Shown here: positions 2,638-24,306 of the stretch, one piece after another
Layout of the letters: every line of letters starts with the position of its first letter
How positions within the stretch are numbered: the first letter of the stretch is position 1
Source: a virus
Taxonomy: Duplodnaviria > Caudoviricetes
Strand: one strand, 5' to 3'
DNA: 42,000 bases
IMG/VR virus record: IMGVR_UViG_3300019124_000014
Span: 1-42,000 of that record
Notes under the pieces: model-generated
What the model was told of the DNA's origin: nothing
Seen by the model: only the letters and a program-made list of their open reading frames with translations
Database searches by the model: none
Position numbers and translations under genes: made by a program

Positions 2638-2880
2638 ATGCAAGGTTTCGAGGTAACGGACGCGCTTTTGATCGGTCTGATTATCAGTTTGGTCGAGTTG
2701 GCGGTGCGGGTCGGCCTCCCAAAACGATTTGCGCCGGTTCTGGCGATTGTTTTGGGCGTGGCAGGGGGAATTGTCTACATCTTTCCCGGAGACGCGAAAA
2801 TGGGCCTTCTAGTCGGTCTGATGATGGGGCTGGCAAGTGTAGGTATGTACAGCAGTACAAAAAACGTCATTGGCAAGTAA
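2638..2880 (+). CDS. Holin (three TM helices)
   Basis: GLPKRFAPVLAIVLG...GLASVGMYSSTKN pattern of Bacillota phage holins; follows endolysin. Confidence 0.85.
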   Translation: MQGFEVTDALLIGLIISLVELAVRVGLPKRFAPVLAIVLGVAGGIVYIFPGDAKMGLLVGLMMGLASVGMYSSTKNVIGK

Positions 2881-2928
2881 CTGGACGGCGTTGTAAGATT
2901 GAATTGTTCACTTCTTGTTTTGCGGAGA

Positions 2929-2954
2929 AAGGCGGGAGAAATCCCGTCTTTTTC
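2929..2954 (+). terminator. Intrinsic terminator after the lysis module
   Basis: AGGCGGGA-gaaa-TCCCGTCT followed by T run. Confidence 0.8.
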
Positions 2955-2965
2955 TCTGTCTTAAA

Positions 2966-2996
2966 TGTTGACAATGTACACAAACATGGGTATGAT
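2966..2996 (+). promoter_or_regulatory. SigA promoter carrying the shared TGTTGACRATGTACACA motif (copy 1)
   Basis: TTGACA (2968)-17 bp-TATGAT (2991). Confidence 0.8.
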
Positions 2997-3058
2997 AAGA
3001 ATATAAGGCGATAACATAGGCTTAACATTTTGTGTAAAGAGGAAAGAGAGGCGTGCAT

Positions 3059-3277
3059 ATGAGCGAAATCATAAAGTGTGAGTCATGCGGGAAAGAAATC
3101 TCTAACAAAACAGAAGTGGAGTATAGCCAGTACTTAAGCGCGTTTTTCTGCAATTTTGACTGCGCCGTGGAGCATTTTATGGACTATATGCAATGCACGC
3201 CGTTCTCGTTCGATCCGCACGAAATGAAAGGAAAACAAGTGAGGTTAGTCCGCGGTAAATTGCACCGAAACTATTGA
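3059..3277 (+). CDS. Small Cys-rich (CxxC...CxxxC) putative zinc-binding protein
   Basis: CESC and CNFDC pairs; GAGG RBS; first gene after the promoter. Confidence 0.6.
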   Translation: MSEIIKCESCGKEISNKTEVEYSQYLSAFFCNFDCAVEHFMDYMQCTPFSFDPHEMKGKQVRLVRGKLHRNY

Positions 3278-3345
3278 ACAAAATAGTTAGGGAGATAAGG
3301 AGCGAACGGAATGACGGGCGAAGCGGCCAGAAAGGAGGGGCGCGT

Positions 3346-3459
3346 ATGATCCAACTGAAACTGTTGGCGGTCGGGTGTGTCGGCATGGCAATCAGTGTCG
3401 TTGTCGCCATCGTTCTCATGGAAATGGACGCAAAAAAAGCAAAAGGCCCGGCGGCGTAA
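3346..3459 (+). CDS. 37-aa single-TM membrane peptide
   Basis: AAAGGAGG RBS; MIQLKLLAVGCVGMAISVVVAIVLMEMDAKKAKGPAA. Confidence 0.6.
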   Translation: MIQLKLLAVGCVGMAISVVVAIVLMEMDAKKAKGPAA

Positions 3460-3601
3460 CCGGACATTTTGCGAGGGGTAAATCAAAACTGCCGAGAACA
3501 ACAAGGCGATTGATCGACGCGGCGTTCGTCGAGGGGCTTATCCCGGCGTACTTATAATACACCGGAGGCCCGCGGAATACAAGTGAAGGGAAGTAAAAAA
3601 T

Positions 3602-3799
3602 ATGCAATCGACAGATTTTTTCACGATCACCAACCCGCAGCAGGTATTGGGCCGGTCTATCGTAGTATTCATGCGGGATGGGTCACAATTCGGGTTCAAG
3701 GTTCTGGCCGTATCCGGGGATCATATCATTGGGCACGACCATGAGGGCATAAACCTGAGCATCGACATTCACGACATATGTGTGGCGAGGTGGAATTGA
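3602..3799 (+). CDS. Hypothetical small beta-barrel-like protein
   Basis: ORF with weak RBS; translationally coupled to the next gene (TGATG). Confidence 0.55.
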   Translation: MQSTDFFTITNPQQVLGRSIVVFMRDGSQFGFKVLAVSGDHIIGHDHEGINLSIDIHDICVARWN

Positions 3800-4092
3800 T
3801 GGACAAAGAGTTATGCGAACAGATCAACAGCGTGCTGGGCAAGAAAATTTTCCCGTTGTACACGCAGCGGTCCTTGCGTGAGCGTTGGGGAGTGGGGCGC
3901 AACGTGATTACCAATCGGAAAAATCGGGACAGCGACTTCCCTAAGCCGATCCAAGGGTTGATCGTTACCGGCTACAATGACGGGGAAATTTACCCGGCAT
4001 ACGAGGTTGAGCAGTACGAGCGCGGCGAAAATTTCAACCGACCGGCAGGCAGACCGGGCAGGCCGCGTGTGGGCGGGAAGAAAAACTTGTGA
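3799..4092 (+). CDS. AlpA/excisionase-like winged-helix DNA-binding protein
   Basis: LRERWGVGRNVITNRKNRDSDFPKP...IYPAYEVEQYE pattern; basic RPGRPR tail. Confidence 0.65.
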   Translation: MDKELCEQINSVLGKKIFPLYTQRSLRERWGVGRNVITNRKNRDSDFPKPIQGLIVTGYNDGEIYPAYEVEQYERGENFNRPAGRPGRPRVGGKKNL

Positions 4093-4209
4093 TATGATGA
4101 TGAAACACTGGTTCATCTTGAACCAGTGCCAATAAACCGCATATTCCTGTATCGCATCAGAGGAAGCGCCTGGCCATGGCGCTTTTTTCTGTTTTTTCGT
4201 TGCAAACAG

Positions 4210-4238
4210 GCATCTTTTTGCAGGGGCGTGCATAGCCT
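4210..4238 (+). promoter_or_regulatory. SigE/SigK-type (mother-cell) promoter 1
   Basis: GCATCTT-14 bp-CATAGCCT, matching kmATAtt-N14-CATAcaaT. Confidence 0.55.
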
Positions 4239-4306
4239 ACTTTCAAGTAGGCTATAGGGGGAAGTACAGTCAACCGGGGAAACCCGGATTTTTTTATTTT
4301 ATCGTG

Positions 4307-4335
4307 TCATATGCCATGCCATCACATCATATGTT
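4307..4335 (+). promoter_or_regulatory. SigE-type (mother-cell) promoter 2 for the RHH/membrane/ATPase operon
   Basis: TCATATG-14 bp-CATATGTT; Spo0A box TTCGACA at 4336-4342. Confidence 0.7.
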
Positions 4336-4366
4336 TTCGACAAAGAGCAGAAAGGCGGGTGACGGA

Positions 4367-4558
4367 ATGGCGACAATGAAAACGAAATCCGTCGGATTCA
4401 ACGTAGACGACGAAAAAGAACGGTTGTTGTATGAATGGGCGGCGAGTCAACCGAATTTTTCCGAATACGTGCGGCAACTGATGCGGCAAGACATTCTCAA
4501 CAGGCAAAAGGCCCGGCAAGTGCCGAGCCAATCCGGAGGGATCAATATTCGTCTTTAG
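4367..4558 (+). CDS. Ribbon-helix-helix-type DNA-binding protein (ParR/CopG-like)
   Basis: KSVGFN strand, then helices LLYEWA and NFSEYVRQLMRQD; AAAGGCGG RBS. Confidence 0.7.
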   Translation: MATMKTKSVGFNVDDEKERLLYEWAASQPNFSEYVRQLMRQDILNRQKARQVPSQSGGINIRL

Positions 4559-4623
4559 CCAACGATGATTTTTACGAAAGTGCCGATGGCCGCGCCAATT
4601 ACTCCACCCAGGAGGAAGTACAT
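4555..4623 (-). CDS. 22-aa hydrophobic membrane peptide MYFLLGGVIGAAIGTFVKIIVG
   Basis: Minus-strand RBS AAAGGAGTGA just upstream of ATG at 4623; consensus sigG promoter upstream; GxxxGxxxG TM helix. Confidence 0.7.
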   Translation of the reverse strand: MYFLLGGVIGAAIGTFVKIIVG

Positions 4624-4656
4624 GCGGCGTTCACTCCTTTTGTTTGGTCTACAACC

Positions 4657-4686
4657 TAGTATGAACACATCACAGGCCGAATATAC
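4657..4686 (-). promoter_or_regulatory. SigG (forespore) promoter driving the 22-aa peptide
   Basis: Minus strand reads GTATA-18 bp-CATACTA, the sigG consensus. Confidence 0.75.
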
Positions 4687-4705
4687 GGCCACAGGAGGCG
4701 TTTTT

Positions 4706-5044
4706 ATGGGTGTGGTGGTAAAGATCAACGGACAATGCATAAACGCGCCTAGAACGGGCGCACAGACGGTCGCAGAGGCATTGCAGGAAATTTCCCAGCC
4801 GATCCGCAAGCACAAAGGCGAAATACTCTTTTCGAGCGGAGCGGCGTCCATGATGTCGTTGATCCGGGAATACGTTTCATTTTCGGAGTATTTGGCCATC
4901 GGGGTGCTGATGTTCGCCGGGACCATGTGGATGTTCGGGCACAGAACCAAGGCCATCGAAATGTTGATCGGCGTGGTGATCGGGTACGAAGTGATATTGC
5001 ACGCCGAGGACTTCATCGAGTGGCTGAAAGAGTTGGCAAAATAA
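4706..5044 (+). CDS. Two-TM membrane protein, VirB2/TrbC pilin-like
   Basis: AGGAGG RBS; hairpin YLAIGVLMFAGTMWMFG-HRTKA-IEMLIGVVIGYEVILHA. Confidence 0.55.
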   Translation: MGVVVKINGQCINAPRTGAQTVAEALQEISQPIRKHKGEILFSSGAASMMSLIREYVSFSEYLAIGVLMFAGTMWMFGHRTKAIEMLIGVVIGYEVILHAEDFIEWLKELAK

Positions 5045-5060
5045 AAGGGGGGCGGGCGGC

Positions 5061-5282
5061 ATGGGTGATTTCATCAAGCAAAAGTTTGGGGAAGTATTCG
5101 GCGCGTGGCTGTCGGATTTGGGGCAAGGTGCGATTGACGGTTTGACGGGCATCATGCCCGAATTGACGGTACTGGTCATGTTGGGGTGCGTGACTGTCGG
5201 CATGTTTACGAAACCAGGGCGCTGGGCGGTGCGTGCGTTCCTGGTGTTTGCGGGTGGTGCAGCATGGCTTATTTTGATATAG
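5061..5282 (+). CDS. Small two-TM membrane protein (VirB3-sized)
   Basis: Two hydrophobic segments; overlaps the start of the ATPase gene. Confidence 0.6.
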   Translation: MGDFIKQKFGEVFGAWLSDLGQGAIDGLTGIMPELTVLVMLGCVTVGMFTKPGRWAVRAFLVFAGGAAWLILI

Positions 5283-7621
5283 TCCGACCCAAAATGACCT
5301 TGTTTAAGATCACGCCTGACAAGGGTGTCACCAATAACACCAACAAGAAATTCTGGCGGATGATGCACGAATTGCTTGCCTTGGATTACTCCATCAAGGA
5401 ACGGATCGAACGGAGCGGACTGAAAATCCGATACCGCCTGCGTGACAATATATGGTTCGATGTGGTGGCCCGCGCATACCATTCCGAGGATCACCACGAT
5501 ATGGTCGAGGGGGAGAAAGAAACCAAGCACAAGGTGGAGTTTTTCATGGCGTGCCCGGCGAAGTTTGCGCCGACGATCAAAAGCAAGATGATCGACCGGT
5601 ATCCGCAAGCGACCATCGAGGAAGTGGATTTTTCCGCCGTCGAGGTCCCGGCAGACGCAGACGTGATCGAGTACCGATACAAGCGGCACGACGTTTTTTC
5701 ACTCAACTGCAACGATACCGAGCAGACGACGCCAATTTCGTCTTTGCTCAACGCTGCCTACGAATTGCAAGCGGGTGATTTCATGCGTTTTTCCGTTTGC
5801 GTGGAGCGGATCGACCGGAAGAAGTGGAAAGGGATGGCCGAGTACGGGTGGGGCCTTCTGGACCAAAAGCGGGTCCCGCAGCGCGTGCGATTCGAGCCGA
5901 GCAAGCTGCTGGAAAGCGCGGCGGACGTGGTGAAATTCTTGGCGTTTGAGGTCAAAGGGCTGCTGGACGACGTGTTGCATACGGTGCAAAATTCCTTTTT
6001 CAAGGACGACGGCAAGCGGCAGGAGCGACCAAAAATCACCTTTCACTCCAAAGAATATGACGCGCTGATGGCCAACGGCAAACTGTCTGACAACACCATC
6101 AAGAAACAGTTTGAACCGGTGTTCGCTGCGAACATTCGTCTGTCCGTTCATTCACAGGATAAGGCCCGCAAGCACATGATTGCCAATTCGGTGACGGGCG
6201 CACTGAACGAATTGAAGGGCGACAACTATTTGGAGCCGCGCAAAGTGCGGGTCAACATTCGCGCCAAGCACATCGAGGAAATGAACACGTTTCAGCGATT
6301 GACCGGGCATGATCCTGACCGCAATATCATGAGTTGCAAGGAGTTGGGCAAACTAAACCAGTATCCGGGCAGGGAGTTGCAGGCGAAATACGCTGACCTG
6401 CTGGACGTGAAACCGCATTTGGAGGTTGACATACCGGCGGAGTTTCGGGACGAACGCGGCCTATACATTGCGGACGCGGTAGTCAAAGGCACGAAAATCC
6501 CGATCCATTTACCGGCGACAAAAAGCCATTGGGATGAATTGTGCCTGCCGAAAGTGGTCATAGGCGGTCAAGGCCAGGGCAAAACTGCGGGATTTGGGGG
6601 GAATCTTGTCGTTGAGGCCGTCAAAAAGGGGTTCGGCGGTATCGCTATAGATGCGGCGAAAGGGCAGATAGGGGATGAGGTAGTGGCCGCACTCCCGGCA
6701 GACAAGGTGCGCCGGTTCAACCTGGCAAATACCGTTTTCGGTTTGGATTGGTGCGAGGTAAAGCACGCGCCGCGCGGCAGGGGGATGCTGGCGGATGCGG
6801 TCCTGGCGTTCTTTGACGACAACACAGACACCGCCGGGGCGCAAACGCAACGGTTCCTGATGGCCGCCGTTTACGGGATGCAGACCGGCAAGCTAAAAGA
6901 GATCGTGAAGATATTCCGGGACGAAAAATACAGGGCGGAGGTTATCACCAAGATGCCGGACACCATCCACCGGGAAACACTGGCCGAGTACCACGAGTAC
7001 AAACCGGACAGACAACGCCAGATTGCCGCACCGATTTTTAACCGTCTGAACGTCGTTTTGGGCGACGAGTGGCTAATGCAATGTTTTGACAGCGACCTAT
7101 CAATTGACATGGTGGAACTGATGAGTACGCCGCAGGCGGTCATTTTCGACCTTCCGAAGCGGGACGGCCTGACGGAGAAGCAGATCGACATACTCGCCAA
7201 TCTGCTGACAACGAAGATCAACTTGGCCATGCAATTGCGCCCGGAGGAAAAGCAATTCCCGTTTTTCGTTGTGTACGACGAGCCGCACCGGTTCCTGCGA
7301 TCCGCGAACCTATGGGAAAGCCTGGCGGTAGAGAGCCGCAAGTGGCGCGTGTCGTTTGTCTGGATGTTTCATGAGTGGTTGATGATCCCGCGCGAGTTGC
7401 GCCAGATCATCAAAAGTGCGCTGCCGCATTATTTCCTCTATCCGAGCGACTACCAAACATTCGCGGACCTGGCGCACTACATCCAGCCGTTTGAGCCAGA
7501 CGACGCAATCAAGTTGCAACGATTCCACGCGATCAACTGCATTCGCTTGAACAGCGTGATTCAGCCGTTTATTGCAAAGATGGCCGCACCACCTAGCCAA
7601 CGGTCGGTCCAAGCGGTATAA
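5264..7621 (+). CDS. VirD4/TraD/HerA-FtsK superfamily P-loop ATPase (785 aa)
   Basis: Walker A VVIGGQGQGKT, Walker B FVVYDEPH, ESRKWRVSFVWMFH motif, IDAAKG; no N-terminal TM segment. Confidence 0.8.
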   Translation: MAYFDIVRPKMTLFKITPDKGVTNNTNKKFWRMMHELLALDYSIKERIERSGLKIRYRLRDNIWFDVVARAYHSEDHHDMVEGEKETKHKVEFFMACPAKFAPTIKSKMIDRYPQATIEEVDFSAVEVPADADVIEYRYKRHDVFSLNCNDTEQTTPISSLLNAAYELQAGDFMRFSVCVERIDRKKWKGMAEYGWGLLDQKRVPQRVRFEPSKLLESAADVVKFLAFEVKGLLDDVLHTVQNSFFKDDGKRQERPKITFHSKEYDALMANGKLSDNTIKKQFEPVFAANIRLSVHSQDKARKHMIANSVTGALNELKGDNYLEPRKVRVNIRAKHIEEMNTFQRLTGHDPDRNIMSCKELGKLNQYPGRELQAKYADLLDVKPHLEVDIPAEFRDERGLYIADAVVKGTKIPIHLPATKSHWDELCLPKVVIGGQGQGKTAGFGGNLVVEAVKKGFGGIAIDAAKGQIGDEVVAALPADKVRRFNLANTVFGLDWCEVKHAPRGRGMLADAVLAFFDDNTDTAGAQTQRFLMAAVYGMQTGKLKEIVKIFRDEKYRAEVITKMPDTIHRETLAEYHEYKPDRQRQIAAPIFNRLNVVLGDEWLMQCFDSDLSIDMVELMSTPQAVIFDLPKRDGLTEKQIDILANLLTTKINLAMQLRPEEKQFPFFVVYDEPHRFLRSANLWESLAVESRKWRVSFVWMFHEWLMIPRELRQIIKSALPHYFLYPSDYQTFADLAHYIQPFEPDDAIKLQRFHAINCIRLNSVIQPFIAKMAAPPSQRSVQAV

Positions 7622-7628
7622 TCGACAG

Positions 7629-7723
7629 ACCAAACAATGAAAGGTGGTGAACCCACCTTTTAGGGGATGGAACAATGAGGATTTCGGCAAAATCCCGCAC
7701 CGGGCACGTCCCGGTGTTTTTTT
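7629..7723 (+). ncRNA. Candidate small RNA of about 95 nt
   Basis: TAGCCA (7594)-17-TATAAT (7617); hairpins AAAGGTGG/CCACCTTT and GGATTT/AAATCC; terminator GCACCGGG/CCCGGTGT plus T run. Confidence 0.4.
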
Positions 7724-7731
7724 ATCTAAAA

Positions 7732-7761
7732 TGTTGACGATGTACACATTTGTGGTATAGT
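7732..7761 (+). promoter_or_regulatory. SigA promoter carrying the shared TGTTGACRATGTACACA motif (copy 2)
   Basis: TTGACG (7734)-16 bp-TATAGT (7756) with extended TG. Confidence 0.75.
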
Positions 7762-7818
7762 AAAGGTGAGGGAGAAAATATTGGAAATGAGGGGTAAGCA
7801 TGGCGAGGGAAAGCTACA

Positions 7819-8001
7819 ATGACCTTTGTTGAGGCGTGCGATTTCATGGCAAGCGGCGGGATCGTGGAGAGTTGCAGGGGCCGGAGATTCACCGGGCGGA
7901 ATGGCCAGTTGTTTATGTTGGGACCAGGCGGCAAGTACATTTTCGGTTTCGGACTATTGGAAGATGAGGTTACCGGCGCGTGGCAGGCGGTCGATAGTTA
8001 A
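7819..8001 (+). CDS. Hypothetical phage protein
   Basis: Short ORF MTFVEA...W; GAGGGA upstream. Confidence 0.5.
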   Translation: MTFVEACDFMASGGIVESCRGRRFTGRNGQLFMLGPGGKYIFGFGLLEDEVTGAWQAVDS

Positions 8002-8032
8002 CAAAATGTGTAGGGAGAGAAGGAGGATAAAC

Positions 8033-8455
8033 ATGGGTTTCAAAAAGCGAGTAGAAGCATATGCCAAAACCGTTAACTGCTCGTTGAAGATGGCTCGCAT
8101 TCGCGTTCGATACTTTGAACGTCTGAGAAAGATCATGTACAACACAAGTATTTGCCCAAAGTGCGGGAAAGCTACCCTCGAAATGGAAATGGGCAGCTAC
8201 GAAGAGGGGATTAAACCCTACGTCTACTGCTCAAATGATAGGGTGCCGGAGACTGAGGACGGAGAGACATACTTCACGGATTGCGGTTTTACTGATGATA
8301 TGAAGGACGAGTACACACCTATATCCCCTTGGTTTGACTTTGACATCGTGCTTGCATTTGCAGTCAATGGGCGACCGCCAGAATACGATGTTGGCGAGAA
8401 TTGGGAGGAGTTTGTTCGAGCTGATACGGAATCGCTGCTGCAAGAAGCAATTTAA
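8033..8455 (+). CDS. Zinc-ribbon hypothetical protein
   Basis: AAGGAGG RBS; CPKC and YC...DC motifs. Confidence 0.65.
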   Translation: MGFKKRVEAYAKTVNCSLKMARIRVRYFERLRKIMYNTSICPKCGKATLEMEMGSYEEGIKPYVYCSNDRVPETEDGETYFTDCGFTDDMKDEYTPISPWFDFDIVLAFAVNGRPPEYDVGENWEEFVRADTESLLQEAI

Positions 8456-8489
8456 CACGATAGTTATTGAGAAAAATGGAGGGGTAAAC

Positions 8490-8861
8490 ATGCAGGAATT
8501 TGAGTTTCGAGCGTGGCACGAAGGGGCGCAAAAAATGCTGTACGAGGACAGAGCCGGGGAAGCGTTCATGTGGCTGTCACAGCGGCAACCCGTAAAAATC
8601 ATGCAGTTTACGGGCTTGCGGGACAAAAACGGCAAGAGGATTTTTGGCGGGGATATAGTTGTTTTCAAATGCGCTTATTGCGGAAACAAAAAAATCACAG
8701 CAACGGTGACGTATGACCGGTTCATAATGTCTTTCGTTTTCGGCAGGGGAGAAGATGGCCATTTCAGAAACGACGCAACAATAACTGACCTGGAAGTAAT
8801 CGGCAACATTTACGAGAATCCCGAATTAATACAGCTTGCGGAGGGGGACGCGAATGACTGA
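8490..8861 (+). CDS. yopX: YopX-family protein
   Basis: FRAW, MQFTGLRDKNGKRIFGGDIV and EVIGNIYENPEL motifs. Confidence 0.9.
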   Translation: MQEFEFRAWHEGAQKMLYEDRAGEAFMWLSQRQPVKIMQFTGLRDKNGKRIFGGDIVVFKCAYCGNKKITATVTYDRFIMSFVFGRGEDGHFRNDATITDLEVIGNIYENPELIQLAEGDAND

Positions 8862-9162
8862 GCAGCAGATCATTGAAACGCTGGCAACGCAGGTGATGGG
8901 GTGGAAAATAGGCGCATTCTATGACGACCATAACCGATTGCGTCATGACGCTTGCTTTGAGGACGGTCACGGGTTCGTGTTGTTTTTGAATAAGTGGAAC
9001 CCACTCCGAAACATAGCGGATGCGTGGATGATTGTGGAGAAATTCGGTAGTATGCCATACGACGATATTCGTCGTATTAGGTTCATGGCTTTGATGCCCG
9101 TCAAAATATACGACATTACTTCAAAATCCATTTGCGAGACTGCATTTAAGGCAATCGCTTAA
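8854..9162 (+). CDS. Phage ABA-sandwich-like protein (paralog 1)
   Basis: LATQVMGW...WNPLRNIADAWMIVEK...SICETA. Confidence 0.75.
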   Translation: MTEQQIIETLATQVMGWKIGAFYDDHNRLRHDACFEDGHGFVLFLNKWNPLRNIADAWMIVEKFGSMPYDDIRRIRFMALMPVKIYDITSKSICETAFKAIA

Positions 9163-9181
9163 CACAAAAATGGTGGTGTAG

Positions 9182-9205
9182 AAACCCGGAGCAATCCGGG
9201 TTTTT
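9182..9205 (+). terminator. Intrinsic terminator
   Basis: AAACCCGGA-gcaa-TCCGGGTTT followed by T run. Confidence 0.8.
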
Positions 9206-9208
9206 CTT

Positions 9209-9287
9209 TTCGACATTCGACAAAAAAATGTCGAAATCTGTCTTGACGAGTCGATTACTGGCGGTTATTATAATAACCAGTAGTAAT
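9209..9287 (+). promoter_or_regulatory. SigA promoter with three Spo0A boxes and a 34-bp palindromic operator
   Basis: TTCGACA at 9209 and 9216, TGTCGAA at 9229; TTGACG (9243)-17-TATTAT (9266); ATTACT-n3-GGTTATTATAATAACC-n3-AGTAAT at 9254-9287. Confidence 0.75.
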
Positions 9288-9314
9288 AATATACCAAGGA
9301 AACGAGGTGAGAGA

Positions 9315-9512
9315 ATGCGACTTCAAGAGTTGAGATTGGCCAAGGGATTCAAAACCCAGGAATCATTCGCAAGCGCAACCGGCCTATCTCAATCGTTTAT
9401 TGCACAAGTGGAGGCCGGGAAAAAATGGCCCAGCTTGCGAACTCTCCGGGTTATGGCGAAAACCCTGGGGTGTACGATTGACGAGATTGTAGAAGAAAAA
9501 ACGGAGGGGTAA
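9315..9512 (+). CDS. Xre/Cro-family HTH transcriptional regulator
   Basis: LQELRLAKG-TQESFA-TGLSQSFIAQVEAG-PSL-AKTLG pattern; GAGGTG RBS. Confidence 0.88.
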   Translation: MRLQELRLAKGFKTQESFASATGLSQSFIAQVEAGKKWPSLRTLRVMAKTLGCTIDEIVEEKTEG

Positions 9513-9517
9513 ACAAC

Positions 9518-10498
9518 ATGCCGAAGGTGATTGTCGAAACGGCGAACATGAGCAGGATGGAGTGGCTGGAAGCCAGGCGGAAGGTGCGGGGCCTTGGCGG
9601 TTCCGACATGAGCGTGGTTTTAGGGCTGAACAAGTGGAAAACACCGTTCCAATTGTGGCTGGAAAAGACGGGGCAAGTCGAAAGCGACGAGTTGTACATA
9701 GTCGATGAGGACGGCGCTTTCGTATCCGGCAACGAGGCGGCATATTGGGGCCACGTTGACGAGGATATTGTGGCGAAGGAGTTTGCGCTGCGGCACAAAA
9801 AGAAGGTCCGGCGGCGCAACGCGATCCTGCAACATGACGAGTACGATTTCCTGTTCGCCAATATCGACCGGGAGATTGTCGGGGAAGATGCCGGTTTGGA
9901 ATGCAAGATTACAAGCGCATACAACGCGAAGGAATGGACCGGTGACGAGATACCGGAAGCGTACATTGTGCAATGTCAGCATTACATGGCCGTAACCGGC
10001 AAAAAAGAATGGTACATTGCCTGCAAGATCGGCGGCAACAAGTTTGTTTCCAAGTTGATTTCCAGGGACGACGAGTTAATTGCCATAATCATCGAACGTG
10101 CGAAACACTTCTGGCAGCATCACGTTTTGGGCAACGTGCCGCCCGCCATTGACGGGTCAAGCGCAGCAGAAAAATTCCTCAACGAGCGATACAAGAAGGC
10201 GGAACACGGAAAAGTCGTTGAGTTAGGGAGTCAGTACAAGGAAAAGGTGGACGAGTTGTTACAACTGAAAGCGACCATCAAAGAATTGGACGAGCAGGCG
10301 ACGGCCATCGAGAACCAACTGAAACACGAACTGCAACAAGCGGAGATCGGCCTGGTGCATGGATACGAAATCAAATGGACGTCGTACAGCCAGGGCCGCA
10401 TTGATTCAAACGCGCTGAAAGAGAAGTACCCGGACATTGCGAAGGAAGTCACCAAGACCATTCAGTCACGAAAATTCCAAATTAAGGAGTTGGCATAA
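9518..10498 (+). CDS. yqaJ: YqaJ-family (lambda-exonuclease-like) recombination nuclease
   Basis: EWLEARR-GLGGSD, ANIDR, GLECK and YIVQCQHYMAVTG motifs. Confidence 0.93.
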   Translation: MPKVIVETANMSRMEWLEARRKVRGLGGSDMSVVLGLNKWKTPFQLWLEKTGQVESDELYIVDEDGAFVSGNEAAYWGHVDEDIVAKEFALRHKKKVRRRNAILQHDEYDFLFANIDREIVGEDAGLECKITSAYNAKEWTGDEIPEAYIVQCQHYMAVTGKKEWYIACKIGGNKFVSKLISRDDELIAIIIERAKHFWQHHVLGNVPPAIDGSSAAEKFLNERYKKAEHGKVVELGSQYKEKVDELLQLKATIKELDEQATAIENQLKHELQQAEIGLVHGYEIKWTSYSQGRIDSNALKEKYPDIAKEVTKTIQSRKFQIKELA

Positions 10499-13507: not shown

Positions 13508-13574
13508 TTGCCAAGCCGGTCTGTCGATGGTATATTGGTTGTAAAGATTTTACGAACCAAAAATCCTTACAACC
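13508..13574 (+). promoter_or_regulatory. SigA promoter of the receptor gene with operator 1 over the start site
   Basis: TTGCCA (13508)-17-TATATT (13531); inverted repeat GGTTGTAAAGATTTT...AAAATCCTTACAACC at 13537-13574 (GTTGTA-N24-TACAAC). Confidence 0.75.
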
Positions 13575-13591
13575 ACGCAAGGGGGAATACG

Positions 13592-14890
13592 ATGGACAAT
13601 CAAACACTTTCTTGCTATGTGTTGGACGAAATGGGCAAGCGCGGACTGACGCAGAACAAGGTGGCTGCCATGTCCGGAATCAACAAGGGAAACTTGACGA
13701 AGTATCTCAAAGGCGCGGCATGGTACACGCTGGACGTGGTTGACAAGTTGGTTGACGCGATTGGTCTGGACCGCCTGACTGCATACGAACTGTACAGCAA
13801 AGAGGTTTTCAGATCGGATGCAAGCAAAGTCATGAAAAAGCGGGAAGATTTGCTTAAAAGGTGTATCGAGCATGGTTTCGTGGAATTGGCAGAGCGCGTG
13901 GCCAGCGCCATGCTGGAAGAAGGGTCTACGGCAATAGGTTTCTACCGCATGGCCGAGGAATACCGGCTACAAGGAAAAGAGAGCGAGGCGCTTGGCCTGT
14001 ATGACAAAGCCATGAGCCTGGAAACGGACCGATATTCCGAATTGCTGGCCTTGTGCCTCTACCGGAAATTTTCCATTTTGCGTGATAAGGATTTGAAGCG
14101 GGTCTATGACGTGGCGTTGGAATTTTCGCTGTACATCAAGAATTTACCGTCTTTTGGCCCGCAAGAGCAAGCGGAAAAATTAGAGGCGTACCGCAAACTG
14201 ATTGCGACATTCTACGAGTTGAAAAAATACGATCACATGTTGTTTTACTGCGACGAACTGGCCGAATTGACCACGAAAATGCAAGGAGCGGACGAGCGGA
14301 CAGCAAGAAAATACCACGGGTATTCCAAGGTGTACAAGGGTTTTGCTTTGAGGGCCACAAAGCGGTATCCCGAAGCGCTGGCGGTCATTGAAGAGTACCG
14401 CGACAACGACACGGATAATTTCTCGGCATGGGCTACGAGCAACAACCTATACGTTCGTGTTGAAATGGGAGAAGTTGAGGCGATCCCGGAAATGCTGGAA
14501 TTTGTGAAGAAAAATCCAATGAACAGCACAGGCGTAATTTTGTCGTTACAAACCTATTTATCCCATGGTAAAATAGTAGATGCGGGGTACGTTGTTGAAA
14601 CGTATCGGGAGCAGATCGACAAAATAATCAACTCTTGCGATATGTTCTATCAAACGTGGCAATGCGACCTTTTTGTTGCGCTTTCCGAATACTACCGGAT
14701 CGCGGGACAAAAAGAGAAGGCCAAGGCATGTTTGATAGACGCTATACGCGCAAGTTTGCGCTTGTGCCAACACGAAAAGTGGCTGCATTGCATCCAGACA
14801 TACAACGCACATTACATCGAGAAGAGCGCAGACAATGTTGATTATTTCGAGTTGCTTTCACAATCCGGCAAATTGTTCAACGGAGAGTGA
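13592..14890 (+). CDS. RRNPP-family peptide receptor (AimR/AloR-like): N-terminal Xre HTH plus TPR repeats
   Basis: HTH GLTQNKVAAMSGINKGNLTKYLKG; helical TPR-like body (EALGLYDKAM, LALCLYRKF, YPEALAVIEEY, FSAWATSNN); 432 aa; followed directly by a secreted pro-peptide gene. Confidence 0.85.
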   Translation: MDNQTLSCYVLDEMGKRGLTQNKVAAMSGINKGNLTKYLKGAAWYTLDVVDKLVDAIGLDRLTAYELYSKEVFRSDASKVMKKREDLLKRCIEHGFVELAERVASAMLEEGSTAIGFYRMAEEYRLQGKESEALGLYDKAMSLETDRYSELLALCLYRKFSILRDKDLKRVYDVALEFSLYIKNLPSFGPQEQAEKLEAYRKLIATFYELKKYDHMLFYCDELAELTTKMQGADERTARKYHGYSKVYKGFALRATKRYPEALAVIEEYRDNDTDNFSAWATSNNLYVRVEMGEVEAIPEMLEFVKKNPMNSTGVILSLQTYLSHGKIVDAGYVVETYREQIDKIINSCDMFYQTWQCDLFVALSEYYRIAGQKEKAKACLIDAIRASLRLCQHEKWLHCIQTYNAHYIEKSADNVDYFELLSQSGKLFNGE

Positions 14891-23748: not shown

Positions 23749-24306
23749 ATGATTTTCGGCTATGCCCGCGTAAGCACGCAGGGGCAGAATCTTGAATCGC
23801 AGCTACACGCGCTGGAAAAATACGGCGTTGATCGGATTTTCCAAGAGAAGCTAACGGGTACATCGAAAGAGCGGCCACAACTGGACGAGTTGTTGAAGGT
23901 GCTGCGTCCGGGGGATCGGGTTGTGGTCTACAAGCTGGACCGCATTTCCCGATCCACCAAGCACCTGATTGAGTTGGCGGAGCGGTTGGAGCGGGAAGGC
24001 GTGGATTTCGTATCCATCCAGGACCACATTGACACGTCTACGGCTGTCGGGCGCTTCTTTTTTCGTACGCTGGCCAGCATTGCGGAGTTGGAACGGGACA
24101 TTATCGCAGAGCGCACTAGGGCGGGTCTGGAAGCTGCCAGAGCGCGGGGCAGGAAGGGCGGCAGACCGGCGAAGGACGCCGACAAGGTTTCCTTGGCCAT
24201 AAGCATGTACGAAAGCCGCAGGTTTACCATCGAGCAGATACGAGAGGCAACCGGGGTGGGCAAGACGACGCTGTACCGGTATCTCAACGACAACCGCCAG
24301 AAATAG
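23749..24306 (+). CDS. Small serine recombinase (resolvase/invertase family) with C-terminal HTH
   Basis: GYARVST catalytic Ser; KLDRISRS; ERTRAGLEAARARGRKGGRP; 185 aa with no integrase-type C-terminal domain. Confidence 0.95.
   Translation: MIFGYARVSTQGQNLESQLHALEKYGVDRIFQEKLTGTSKERPQLDELLKVLRPGDRVVVYKLDRISRSTKHLIELAERLEREGVDFVSIQDHIDTSTAVGRFFFRTLASIAELERDIIAERTRAGLEAARARGRKGGRPAKDADKVSLAISMYESRRFTIEQIREATGVGKTTLYRYLNDNRQK

Follow-up and report, generated by a model that had tools for sequence, protein, structure and literature searches.

A widespread phage gene cassette with type IV secretion-derived parts looks wired to both compartments of the sporulating cell

The 42,000-nucleotide (nt) stretch of DNA considered here (hereafter the window) is a single virus record, IMGVR_UViG_3300019124_000014 (Duplodnaviria; Caudoviricetes), and harbors a four-gene operon encoding a ribbon-helix-helix (RHH) type protein, a pilin-like membrane protein, a small membrane protein and a conjugation-derived motor ATPase. 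The cassette is real and widespread and, judging from its promoter motifs, it looks wired to both sporulation compartments: sigmaE-type (mother-cell) motifs precede the operon, and a sigmaG-type (forespore) motif precedes a short peptide gene on the opposite strand. An earlier note on this DNA had described the operon and its sigmaE-type promoters; the hairpin and terminator at the distal promoter and the antisense peptide gene are additions to it. A sporulation-specific role of some kind is very probable from these sequences, and we give about even odds (roughly 0.5) to the reading that the cassette would carry the DNA of the phage out of the mother cell into the forespore, the peptide serving to signal "already occupied".

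Mother-cell promoter motifs precede the operon

Relatives were collected as 99 loci with an ATPase N-terminus (loci lacking it were excluded) and reduced to 59 clusters at 80% identity (40 merged), for which 312 controls were available. Both sigmaE-geometry promoters described in the earlier note, here P1 and P2 (Table 1), were found with a 14-nt spacer and are the only strict sigmaE matches on either strand of the 42 kb, where 0.51 are expected. Two strict matches were also reached in 8 of 100 shuffles, so the count alone is not significant and the weight of P1 and P2 rests on their position and conservation. P2 lies outside the top eight plus-strand window sites ranked by the family matrix.

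The conservation expected of these promoters was borne out with the exact spacer: the strict sigmaE pattern is present in 12 of 59 cluster leaders vs 1 of 312 control windows, and a leave-one-out matrix detects it in 17 leaders vs 4 controls. Shifted spacers (12, 13, 15 and 16 nt) showed no enrichment in leaders. Matches within 3 kb upstream were found in 23 of 59 cases (29 with the relaxed pattern), compared with 1 of 54 (relaxed, 4) downstream. An ATA-type −35 box, a fixed spacer, a CATAnnnT −10 box and a conserved position are what is seen here of a sigmaE regulon member, the full sigmaE consensus being background knowledge. The −35 box distinguishes sigE from sigK (ATA versus AC, PMC3789822). 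Patterns for sigA, sigF, sigG, sigH and strict sigK were rejected as drivers of the sense operon, as they are not enriched in leaders (for sigA, 2/59 leaders vs 35/312 controls), and a loose sigK pattern returned 5/59 leaders vs 9/312 controls (p 0.055). The Spo0A box that the earlier note had placed next to P2 is indeed there; Spo0A control as a trait of the family did not hold, with a 0A box in 3/59 leaders vs 18/312 controls.

The −10 box of P1 is also one arm of a hairpin. At such distal sites an inverted-repeat arm of at least 6 nt was found in 19 of 30 cases vs 67 of 707 other CATAnnnT sites; the stem arms change together (about 30 related sites) and the hairpin is often followed by a terminator. 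The terminator-like site of the window would stop RNA started at P1 at about 50 nt, insulating the operon, and SPP1 has a predicted terminator at the matching place, just 5′ of gene 31 (PMC6316719 Table 2). Hairpin and terminator together predict a short RNA or a DNA structure. Longer versions of the hairpin carry TAGCGT and GCGNAGC-like motifs. A likeness of the P1 hairpin to single-strand origins (CS-6 motif) is conceivable. Rfam returned no gathering-score match in 11 loci and, for positions 2800-9600 of the window, four weak matches, none of them in the cassette leader.

An antisense peptide gene with a forespore-type motif

On the minus strand, the gap between the RHH and pilin-like genes is occupied by a gene for a hydrophobic peptide and by its sigmaG-type motif, the only strict sigmaG match on either window strand. 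The peptide, for which no PHROG match was found, was first spotted by eye in the window, in its nearest relative L014 and in D6E (a Geobacillus phage), all within the 59 clusters. An antisense hydrophobic open reading frame (ORF) is present in 37 of the 59 clusters when a strict ribosome-binding site is imposed and in 47 when a loose one is accepted; the call in L041 looks false. Length-matched peptide ORFs returned 33/59 vs 2/312 controls (strict) and 43/59 vs 13/312 (loose).

A forespore-type −35/−10 motif, as found in the sigmaF/sigmaG regulons, lies upstream of the window peptide gene, and among the 47 peptides a sigmaF/sigmaG-type motif is found upstream of 24, as against 18 of 312 ordinary genes; with spacers of 15-16 nt and 19-20 nt the 24 fall to 2 and 9, respectively. 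The sigmaG consensus used is established background. That of sigmaF was taken from PMC11599450. In Basilisk, a 24-codon minus-strand gene is annotated at the same place, and the ORF is also present in Ray17, which shares a cluster with SPP1. It was not found in SPO1, CP-51, SP10, LysYB1, Sam46 and MMB025, and of 12 distant loci three have a hydrophobic antisense ORF and none a forespore-type promoter. In SP10 (L004), a short hydrophobic ORF that seems to be in sense orientation lies 5′ of the pilin gene, some 110-15 bases upstream of gp201.

Carriers are almost all endospore formers

The ATPase matches 105 of 50,697 phage records, 104 of which come from endospore-forming genera, and the 50 plasmid matches all come from Clostridium, Bacillus or Alicyclobacillus, endospore-forming genera. 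Among 401 Bacilli genomes, sigE was found in 65 of the 69 ATPase carriers vs 272 of the 401 overall (p 3e-8), and in 22 of 22 genomes whose ATPase match has an E-value ≤1e-50. Hosts are almost exclusively endospore formers. One carrier clearly lacks sigE (L111, a relaxase-linked element without a pilin or RHH match) and three others are borderline.

The motor is a coupling protein by descent with a VirB4-like build

The earlier note had credited the ATPase with intact Walker A and B motifs and an ESRKWR motif, and all three were located (residues 434-441, 669-675 and 690-695, respectively); K440 and E673 never vary among 107 ATPase sequences, and K693 hardly does. The predicted model is confident (predicted local distance difference test, pLDDT, 93.8). 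Structural comparison of the motor (residues 389-782) returned VirB4 (Z 27.9, root-mean-square deviation (rmsd) 3.5, 337 aligned), TrwB (Z 27.6, rmsd 4.3, 357 aligned) and HerA (Z 25.6, rmsd 3.3, 318 aligned), with a weaker match to FtsK (Z 17.6, rmsd 3.2, 220 aligned). Residues 1-385, folded alone, best match the TrwK/VirB4 N-terminal domain (E 2e-7; Z 16.7, rmsd 3.9, 268 aligned), the next match being an ESX-3 chain (Z 10.9); this fold call is based on Foldseek and its second look. FtsK/SpoIIIE was rejected as the nearest fold. Of the earlier label, VirD4/FtsK-like, the conjugation-derived part stands, and the FtsK-like part gives way to a fold that is VirB4-like over the whole length.

The ATPase shares with VirB4 an N-terminal VirB4 domain plus a C-terminal motor fold, and with coupling proteins (VirD4/TrwB/TraD) a RecA-like motor with an all-alpha domain, as in TrwB. 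No Pfam AAA_10 match to the ATPase was found, and an N-terminal membrane anchor was seen neither in the window protein (no hydropathy peak) nor in any of the 59 clusters. TrwB_AAD_bind matches occur in distant relatives. A Replic_Relax gene comes after the ATPase gene in SPO1 and in 8 of 12 distant loci picked by hand; a VirB4 separate from the ATPase is encoded in 5 of the 12 (recognised by Pfam in three and by tree position in two). Because Replic_Relax adjoins the ATPase in distant loci, five of which have a separate VirB4, we read its role there as that of a coupling protein. Both trees, from which L012 and L019 (split ATPase) were excluded, group the ATPase with coupling-position ATPases and apart from the five VirB4 of the same loci (long branches). 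The phage ATPases fall within this coupling-position set, and SPO1 and CP-51, which carry a relaxase, branch outside the relaxase-free group (support 88, short of conclusive). The branch bearing on a single relaxase loss has 21 tree rows on one side, at a Shimodaira-Hasegawa-like approximate likelihood ratio (SH-aLRT) of 88 in a quick tree. The ATPase branch of the window phage appears to be one from which the relaxase was lost; its relatives sit, as coupling proteins, beside Replic_Relax relaxases. The protein is a coupling protein by descent with a VirB4-like build, and it has the full set of defining features of neither class.

In L117, L118 and L122, small elements encode the ATPase, Replic_Relax and a pair of short membrane proteins next to a helix-turn-helix (HTH) gene and a RibD-like gene; they are possible intermediates between the conjugative and phage forms.

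The other cassette genes

The four ORFs encode 63, 112, 73 and 785 amino acids (aa), each preceded by a ribosome-binding site (Table 1). All four lie where the earlier note had put them. The 63-aa protein matches RHH_9 with an E-value of 0.003, under the Pfam cut-off. In parM-bearing relatives (19 of the 59 clusters) the RHH gene is frequently directly 3′ of parM, in parR-like order; parM was not found in the cassette of the window phage. Some relatives have paired RHH genes per cassette (L003/L017/L018, L028 and L061), one located 3′ of parM and the other 5′ of the pilin gene, with differing C-terminal tails.

For the 112-aa protein, the TrbC/VirB2 match (E 4e-5) is below the Pfam cut-off (24.2 vs 27.9 bits), the atlas comparison gave leads only, under the bar, and the profile behind its cluster count was seeded from 10 of the loci. 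Described earlier as a VirB2-like protein with two transmembrane segments, it shows a single weak hydropathy peak (1.52), and two segments are not clearly seen. A separate second hydrophobic membrane ORF was detected in 29 of the 59 clusters. An M23 peptidase (PF01551) is present in 8 of 59, fused to the second membrane protein in some relatives. In L010 (2617-3264), L038, L041, L042 and L046 this peptidase forms the N-terminal part of the fusion, with no obvious signal peptide.

Table 1. Features of the cassette and its leader, in window coordinates (aa, amino acids; L014, the nearest relative).
Feature	Position	Strand	Remark
P1, sigmaE-type promoter motif (-35, 14 nt, -10)	4210..4238	+	leave-one-out matrix score 17.2; top window site by family matrix
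Inverted repeat, left arm = P1 -10 box	4232..4255		11-nt perfect arm
Intrinsic-terminator-like site between P1 and P2	4274..4296	+	SPP1 counterpart predicted in print
P2, sigmaE-type promoter motif ahead of operon	4307..4335	+	14-nt spacer; kept in L014 with one -35 change
Spo0A box directly 3′ of P2 -10 box	4336..4342	-	kept in L014
RHH-type protein, 63 aa, ParR-like (SPP1 gp31 family)	4367..4558	+	RHH gene in 44/59 clusters
Antisense gene, 22-aa glycine-rich hydrophobic peptide	4555..4623	-	strong ribosome-binding site at 4641-4634
SigmaG-type (forespore) promoter motif (-35, 18 nt, -10) ahead of peptide gene	4657..4686	-	only strict sigmaG match in the window
VirB2/TrbC pilin-like membrane protein, 112 aa (SPP1 gp31.1 family)	4706..5044	+	59/59 clusters
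Small two-helix membrane protein, 73 aa (SPP1 gp31.2 position)	5061..5282	+	two hydropathy peaks
785-aa ATPase: VirB4-like N-terminal domain (1-385) and VirB4/TrwB/HerA motor domain (SPP1 gp32 family, phrog_5156)	5264..7621	+	

Relaxase and integrase genes in carriers

Searches of the window record turned up no Replic_Relax relaxase, tyrosine integrase or large serine recombinase, and all three are also missing from L014, whose record is 100% complete and has terminal repeats. For other relaxase families the screen consisted only of the PHROG scan (77 ORFs) and Pfam scans (42 ORFs), and none turned up. No VirB6, VirB8 or separate VirB4 of a mating-pair channel was recognised among the 77 ORFs. 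Within these scans, the absence of a relaxase and of further type IV secretion genes given in the earlier note holds. Across 50 whole records, Replic_Relax is absent in 47 and present in three, SPO1 and CP-51 among them.

The description of the window phage as integrase-less also agrees with its record, where the only recombinase seen is a small serine resolvase/invertase (23749-24306), just 5′ of the terminase genes; it may resolve an episomal circle. The proposed co-occurrence of the cassette with integrase loss was not observed. A tyrosine recombinase is encoded in 20 of 50 records, a large serine recombinase in 11 and either in 28, and of the 34 IMG/VR records, 9 carry a provirus classification; because 28 of 50 carriers encode a recombinase, the cassette is not tied to integrase loss.

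A proposed mechanism and its rivals

Spores are known to entrap phage genomes. A phage genome still on the mother-cell side once the septum is in place perishes with that cell at lysis. SigmaE is active after the septum has formed. Post-septation, sigmaE would turn on the four genes in the mother cell. The RHH protein would attach to the DNA of the phage, the pilin and the membrane anchor would hold the ATPase to the septal or engulfing membrane, and this motor, perhaps aided by channel proteins of the host, would pass double-stranded phage DNA into the forespore. Once there, the genome would make the peptide from its forespore promoter and mark the compartment as "occupied", in the manner of entry-exclusion proteins; the antisense transcript of the peptide gene could silence the operon in the forespore. 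The peptide cannot be required for the first entry into an empty forespore, because its gene must arrive first; it would therefore be a stop signal or an antidote. Put as intracellular conjugation, with the mother cell as donor, the forespore as recipient and a forespore micropeptide which reports occupancy and either ends transfer or spares the spore, the idea is plausible, and we hold it tentatively.

A link to DNA movement, which we infer from parM in relatives, from Replic_Relax beside distant ATPases and from the VirB4/TrwB/HerA-like motor, supports transfer, as do the mother-cell motif, the forespore unit and the host range. We also count in its favor the dispensability in ordinary growth of SPP1 31.2 and 32 and of the 0305phi8-36 operon. 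Of the minimal machine switched on in sporulation that the earlier note had envisaged, the sporulation wiring (motif, hosts and forespore unit) and the relaxase-less, conjugation-derived ATPase survive; the tie to integrase loss, Spo0A control across the family and the FtsK-like fold do not.

Several observations weigh against transfer into the forespore. About half of the clusters are without a sigmaE match (29 of 59 matching at best), and the opposite strand of the same upstream DNA also matches in 11 of 59 (relaxed, 12). The 59 clusters are interrelated, so that p-values overstate. The tie to sigE also covers the distant conjugative forms, and host lineage or genome size may contribute to it. 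One phage match is labelled Microcystis and two short contigs of an Elusimicrobiaceae metagenome-assembled genome also match, in each case by label only. No RHH gene was found in 15 of 59 clusters. For carriers with a recombinase, integration may make a pump superfluous. Neither a channel (VirB6/VirB8) nor a nicking enzyme nor a second ATPase was recognised, which leaves the crossing of two membranes unexplained. In print, SPP1 genes 31-32 are assigned to the early PE5 unit (PMC6316719), and SPO1 gp29.1, the pilin homologue, is listed as early (PMC13401047 Table 1).

The main rival of the transfer reading is a poison-antidote switch, in which the machine made in the mother cell would harm or arrest any forespore that lacks the phage and its peptide; spores would mature only with the phage inside, and otherwise the mother cell would be kept for lytic growth. 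The same two-compartment wiring fits it, it is valid for proviruses and free genomes alike and requires neither relaxase nor DNA channel, and it sits well with a pilin and ATPase core that is steadier than the RHH gene (59 vs 44 of 59). It leaves the ParM/ParR linkage (19/59 clusters) and the descent of the ATPase from DNA-coupling proteins unexplained, however, and no toxin-like gene was recognised in the operon; we regard it as unlikely. The ParR-like adaptor and the parM linkage, with parts too few for an autonomous channel, would also suit a tether rather than a pump, the complex holding phage DNA fast at either the polar septum or the engulfing membrane while SpoIIIE or engulfment completes capture. 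Yet sigmaE acts only once the septum has formed, the catalytic residues are invariant in the 107 sequences and the M23 hydrolase fused in 8 of 59 clusters suggests wall-layer crossing, all of which makes a tether distinctly improbable.

Export of a phage or host protein by VirB4-like protein or pilin handling, altering spore development or blocking superinfection of the sporangium, would account for the TrwK/VirB4 match of the N-terminal domain (Z 16.7) and for a gene order like virB2-virB3-virB4. Against this, the distant relatives hold the coupling-protein role beside a separate VirB4 and a relaxase, and no conserved candidate substrate gene was found, so we consider export very improbable. 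Transfer of phage DNA between neighboring cells, for instance in biofilms, via host or helper mating-pair functions was proposed for 0305phi8-36 (PMC3357382), and the relaxase retained in SPO1 and CP-51 and the early listing of SPO1 gp29.1 (PMC13401047) agree with it. The absence of Replic_Relax from 47 of 50 records, a sigA pattern rarer in leaders than in controls (2/59 vs 35/312) and a forespore-type antisense unit that it leaves unexplained make transfer between cells barely plausible for the cassette.

The phage and its wider context

The window phage is contractile-tailed, with head, tail, lysis, RecE/RecT and DnaD/DnaC-like genes encoded in a record of 94% completeness (CheckV), and the cassette lies beyond the lysis genes. 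In the tree, the closest row that bears a name is a Paenibacillus genome. Spo0A boxes are abundant in the window (19 vs 7.25 expected, range 1254-40118; matched in 0 of 100 shuffles), and three of them (9209-9235) directly precede a sigA-like promoter (9243-9271) ahead of HTH-RecE-RecT genes, which suggests that Spo0A may repress early genes, as it does in phi29. A 460-aa protein (13508-14890) has an N-terminal HTH and a TPR match and is possibly an RRNPP-type peptide-sensing regulator. In vB_BpsM-61, a Spo0E-like gene (L104:4996-5139) is annotated shortly downstream of the cassette.

If the transfer reading is true, phages would take an active part in their own entrapment in spores, through a motor that they encode themselves; lytic as well as temperate phages of endospore formers, SPP1 included, would have a dedicated machine for it, and parts of type IV secretion would have found a new use within one cell. 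Phages and plasmids would have a way of persisting in spore banks, and the cassette might serve as a tool for loading spores with DNA. Transfer, if shown, would be a categorically new function for a type IV secretion-derived module. Because the model phages SPP1 and SPO1 carry the cassette, which is dispensable in normal growth and has promoter motifs for both compartments, the question can be addressed in B. subtilis 168, for which sigma-factor mutants exist.

Comparison with known systems

The cassette genes are known in print without a function, and their two-compartment wiring was not found in print; no paper tying the cassette to sporulation sigma factors was found in a search mostly outside subscription journals, of main texts without supplements. 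The closest counterpart is SPP1 31-31.1-31.2-32, which has the same gene order (an RHH gene, a pilin-like gene, a small membrane protein gene and an ATPase gene of about 800 codons in one operon) and whose gp32 is 31% identical to the window ATPase. There, a TrwB/VirB4/FtsK-like translocon with small membrane proteins was proposed, with its role unknown, and 31.2 and 32 are non-essential (Godinho et al. 2018, PMC6316719). Two sigmaE-type motifs are visible 5′ of SPP1 gene 31, as in the window. The accessible text of PMC6316719 does not contain the word "spore", and the antisense peptide was not seen in it. In the "DNA translocation operon" described for 0305phi8-36 and SPO1 (gp27.3-27.9), which is relaxase-bearing, deletion in 0305phi8-36 was without effect and cell-to-cell spread in biofilms was proposed (Pathria et al. 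2012, PMC3357382; "spor" occurs 0 times in its accessible text). This operon has an ATPase of the same family (SPO1 gp27.4, 23% identical) and an actin-like partner, and it is dispensable in the laboratory; unlike the window cassette, it keeps a Replic_Relax/MobC relaxase.

Gram-positive conjugative systems comprise a coupling ATPase, a Replic_Relax relaxase, TcpE, VirB4, a VirB6-like protein and a wall hydrolase. Distant homologues of the window ATPase occupy the coupling position in such loci, and the pilin-like part of the cassette and the M23 part of its family resemble VirB2 and VirB1, respectively. In contrast to these systems, the window cassette has no relaxase, separate VirB4, channel protein or ATPase membrane helix, and it has sporulation-type promoters. 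With type II partition (ParM-ParR-parC) it shares a ParR-like RHH protein, which follows parM in many relatives; it differs in being without parM and in that the partner of the RHH protein is a membrane-linked, secretion-type ATPase. Inheritance by the forespore is favored by AlfA of pLS32. SpoIIIE, the host chromosome translocase, does the job that we propose for the cassette, bringing DNA into the forespore after septation, whereas the window ATPase differs from it in architecture, with a weaker FtsK motor match and a VirB4-like N-terminal domain.

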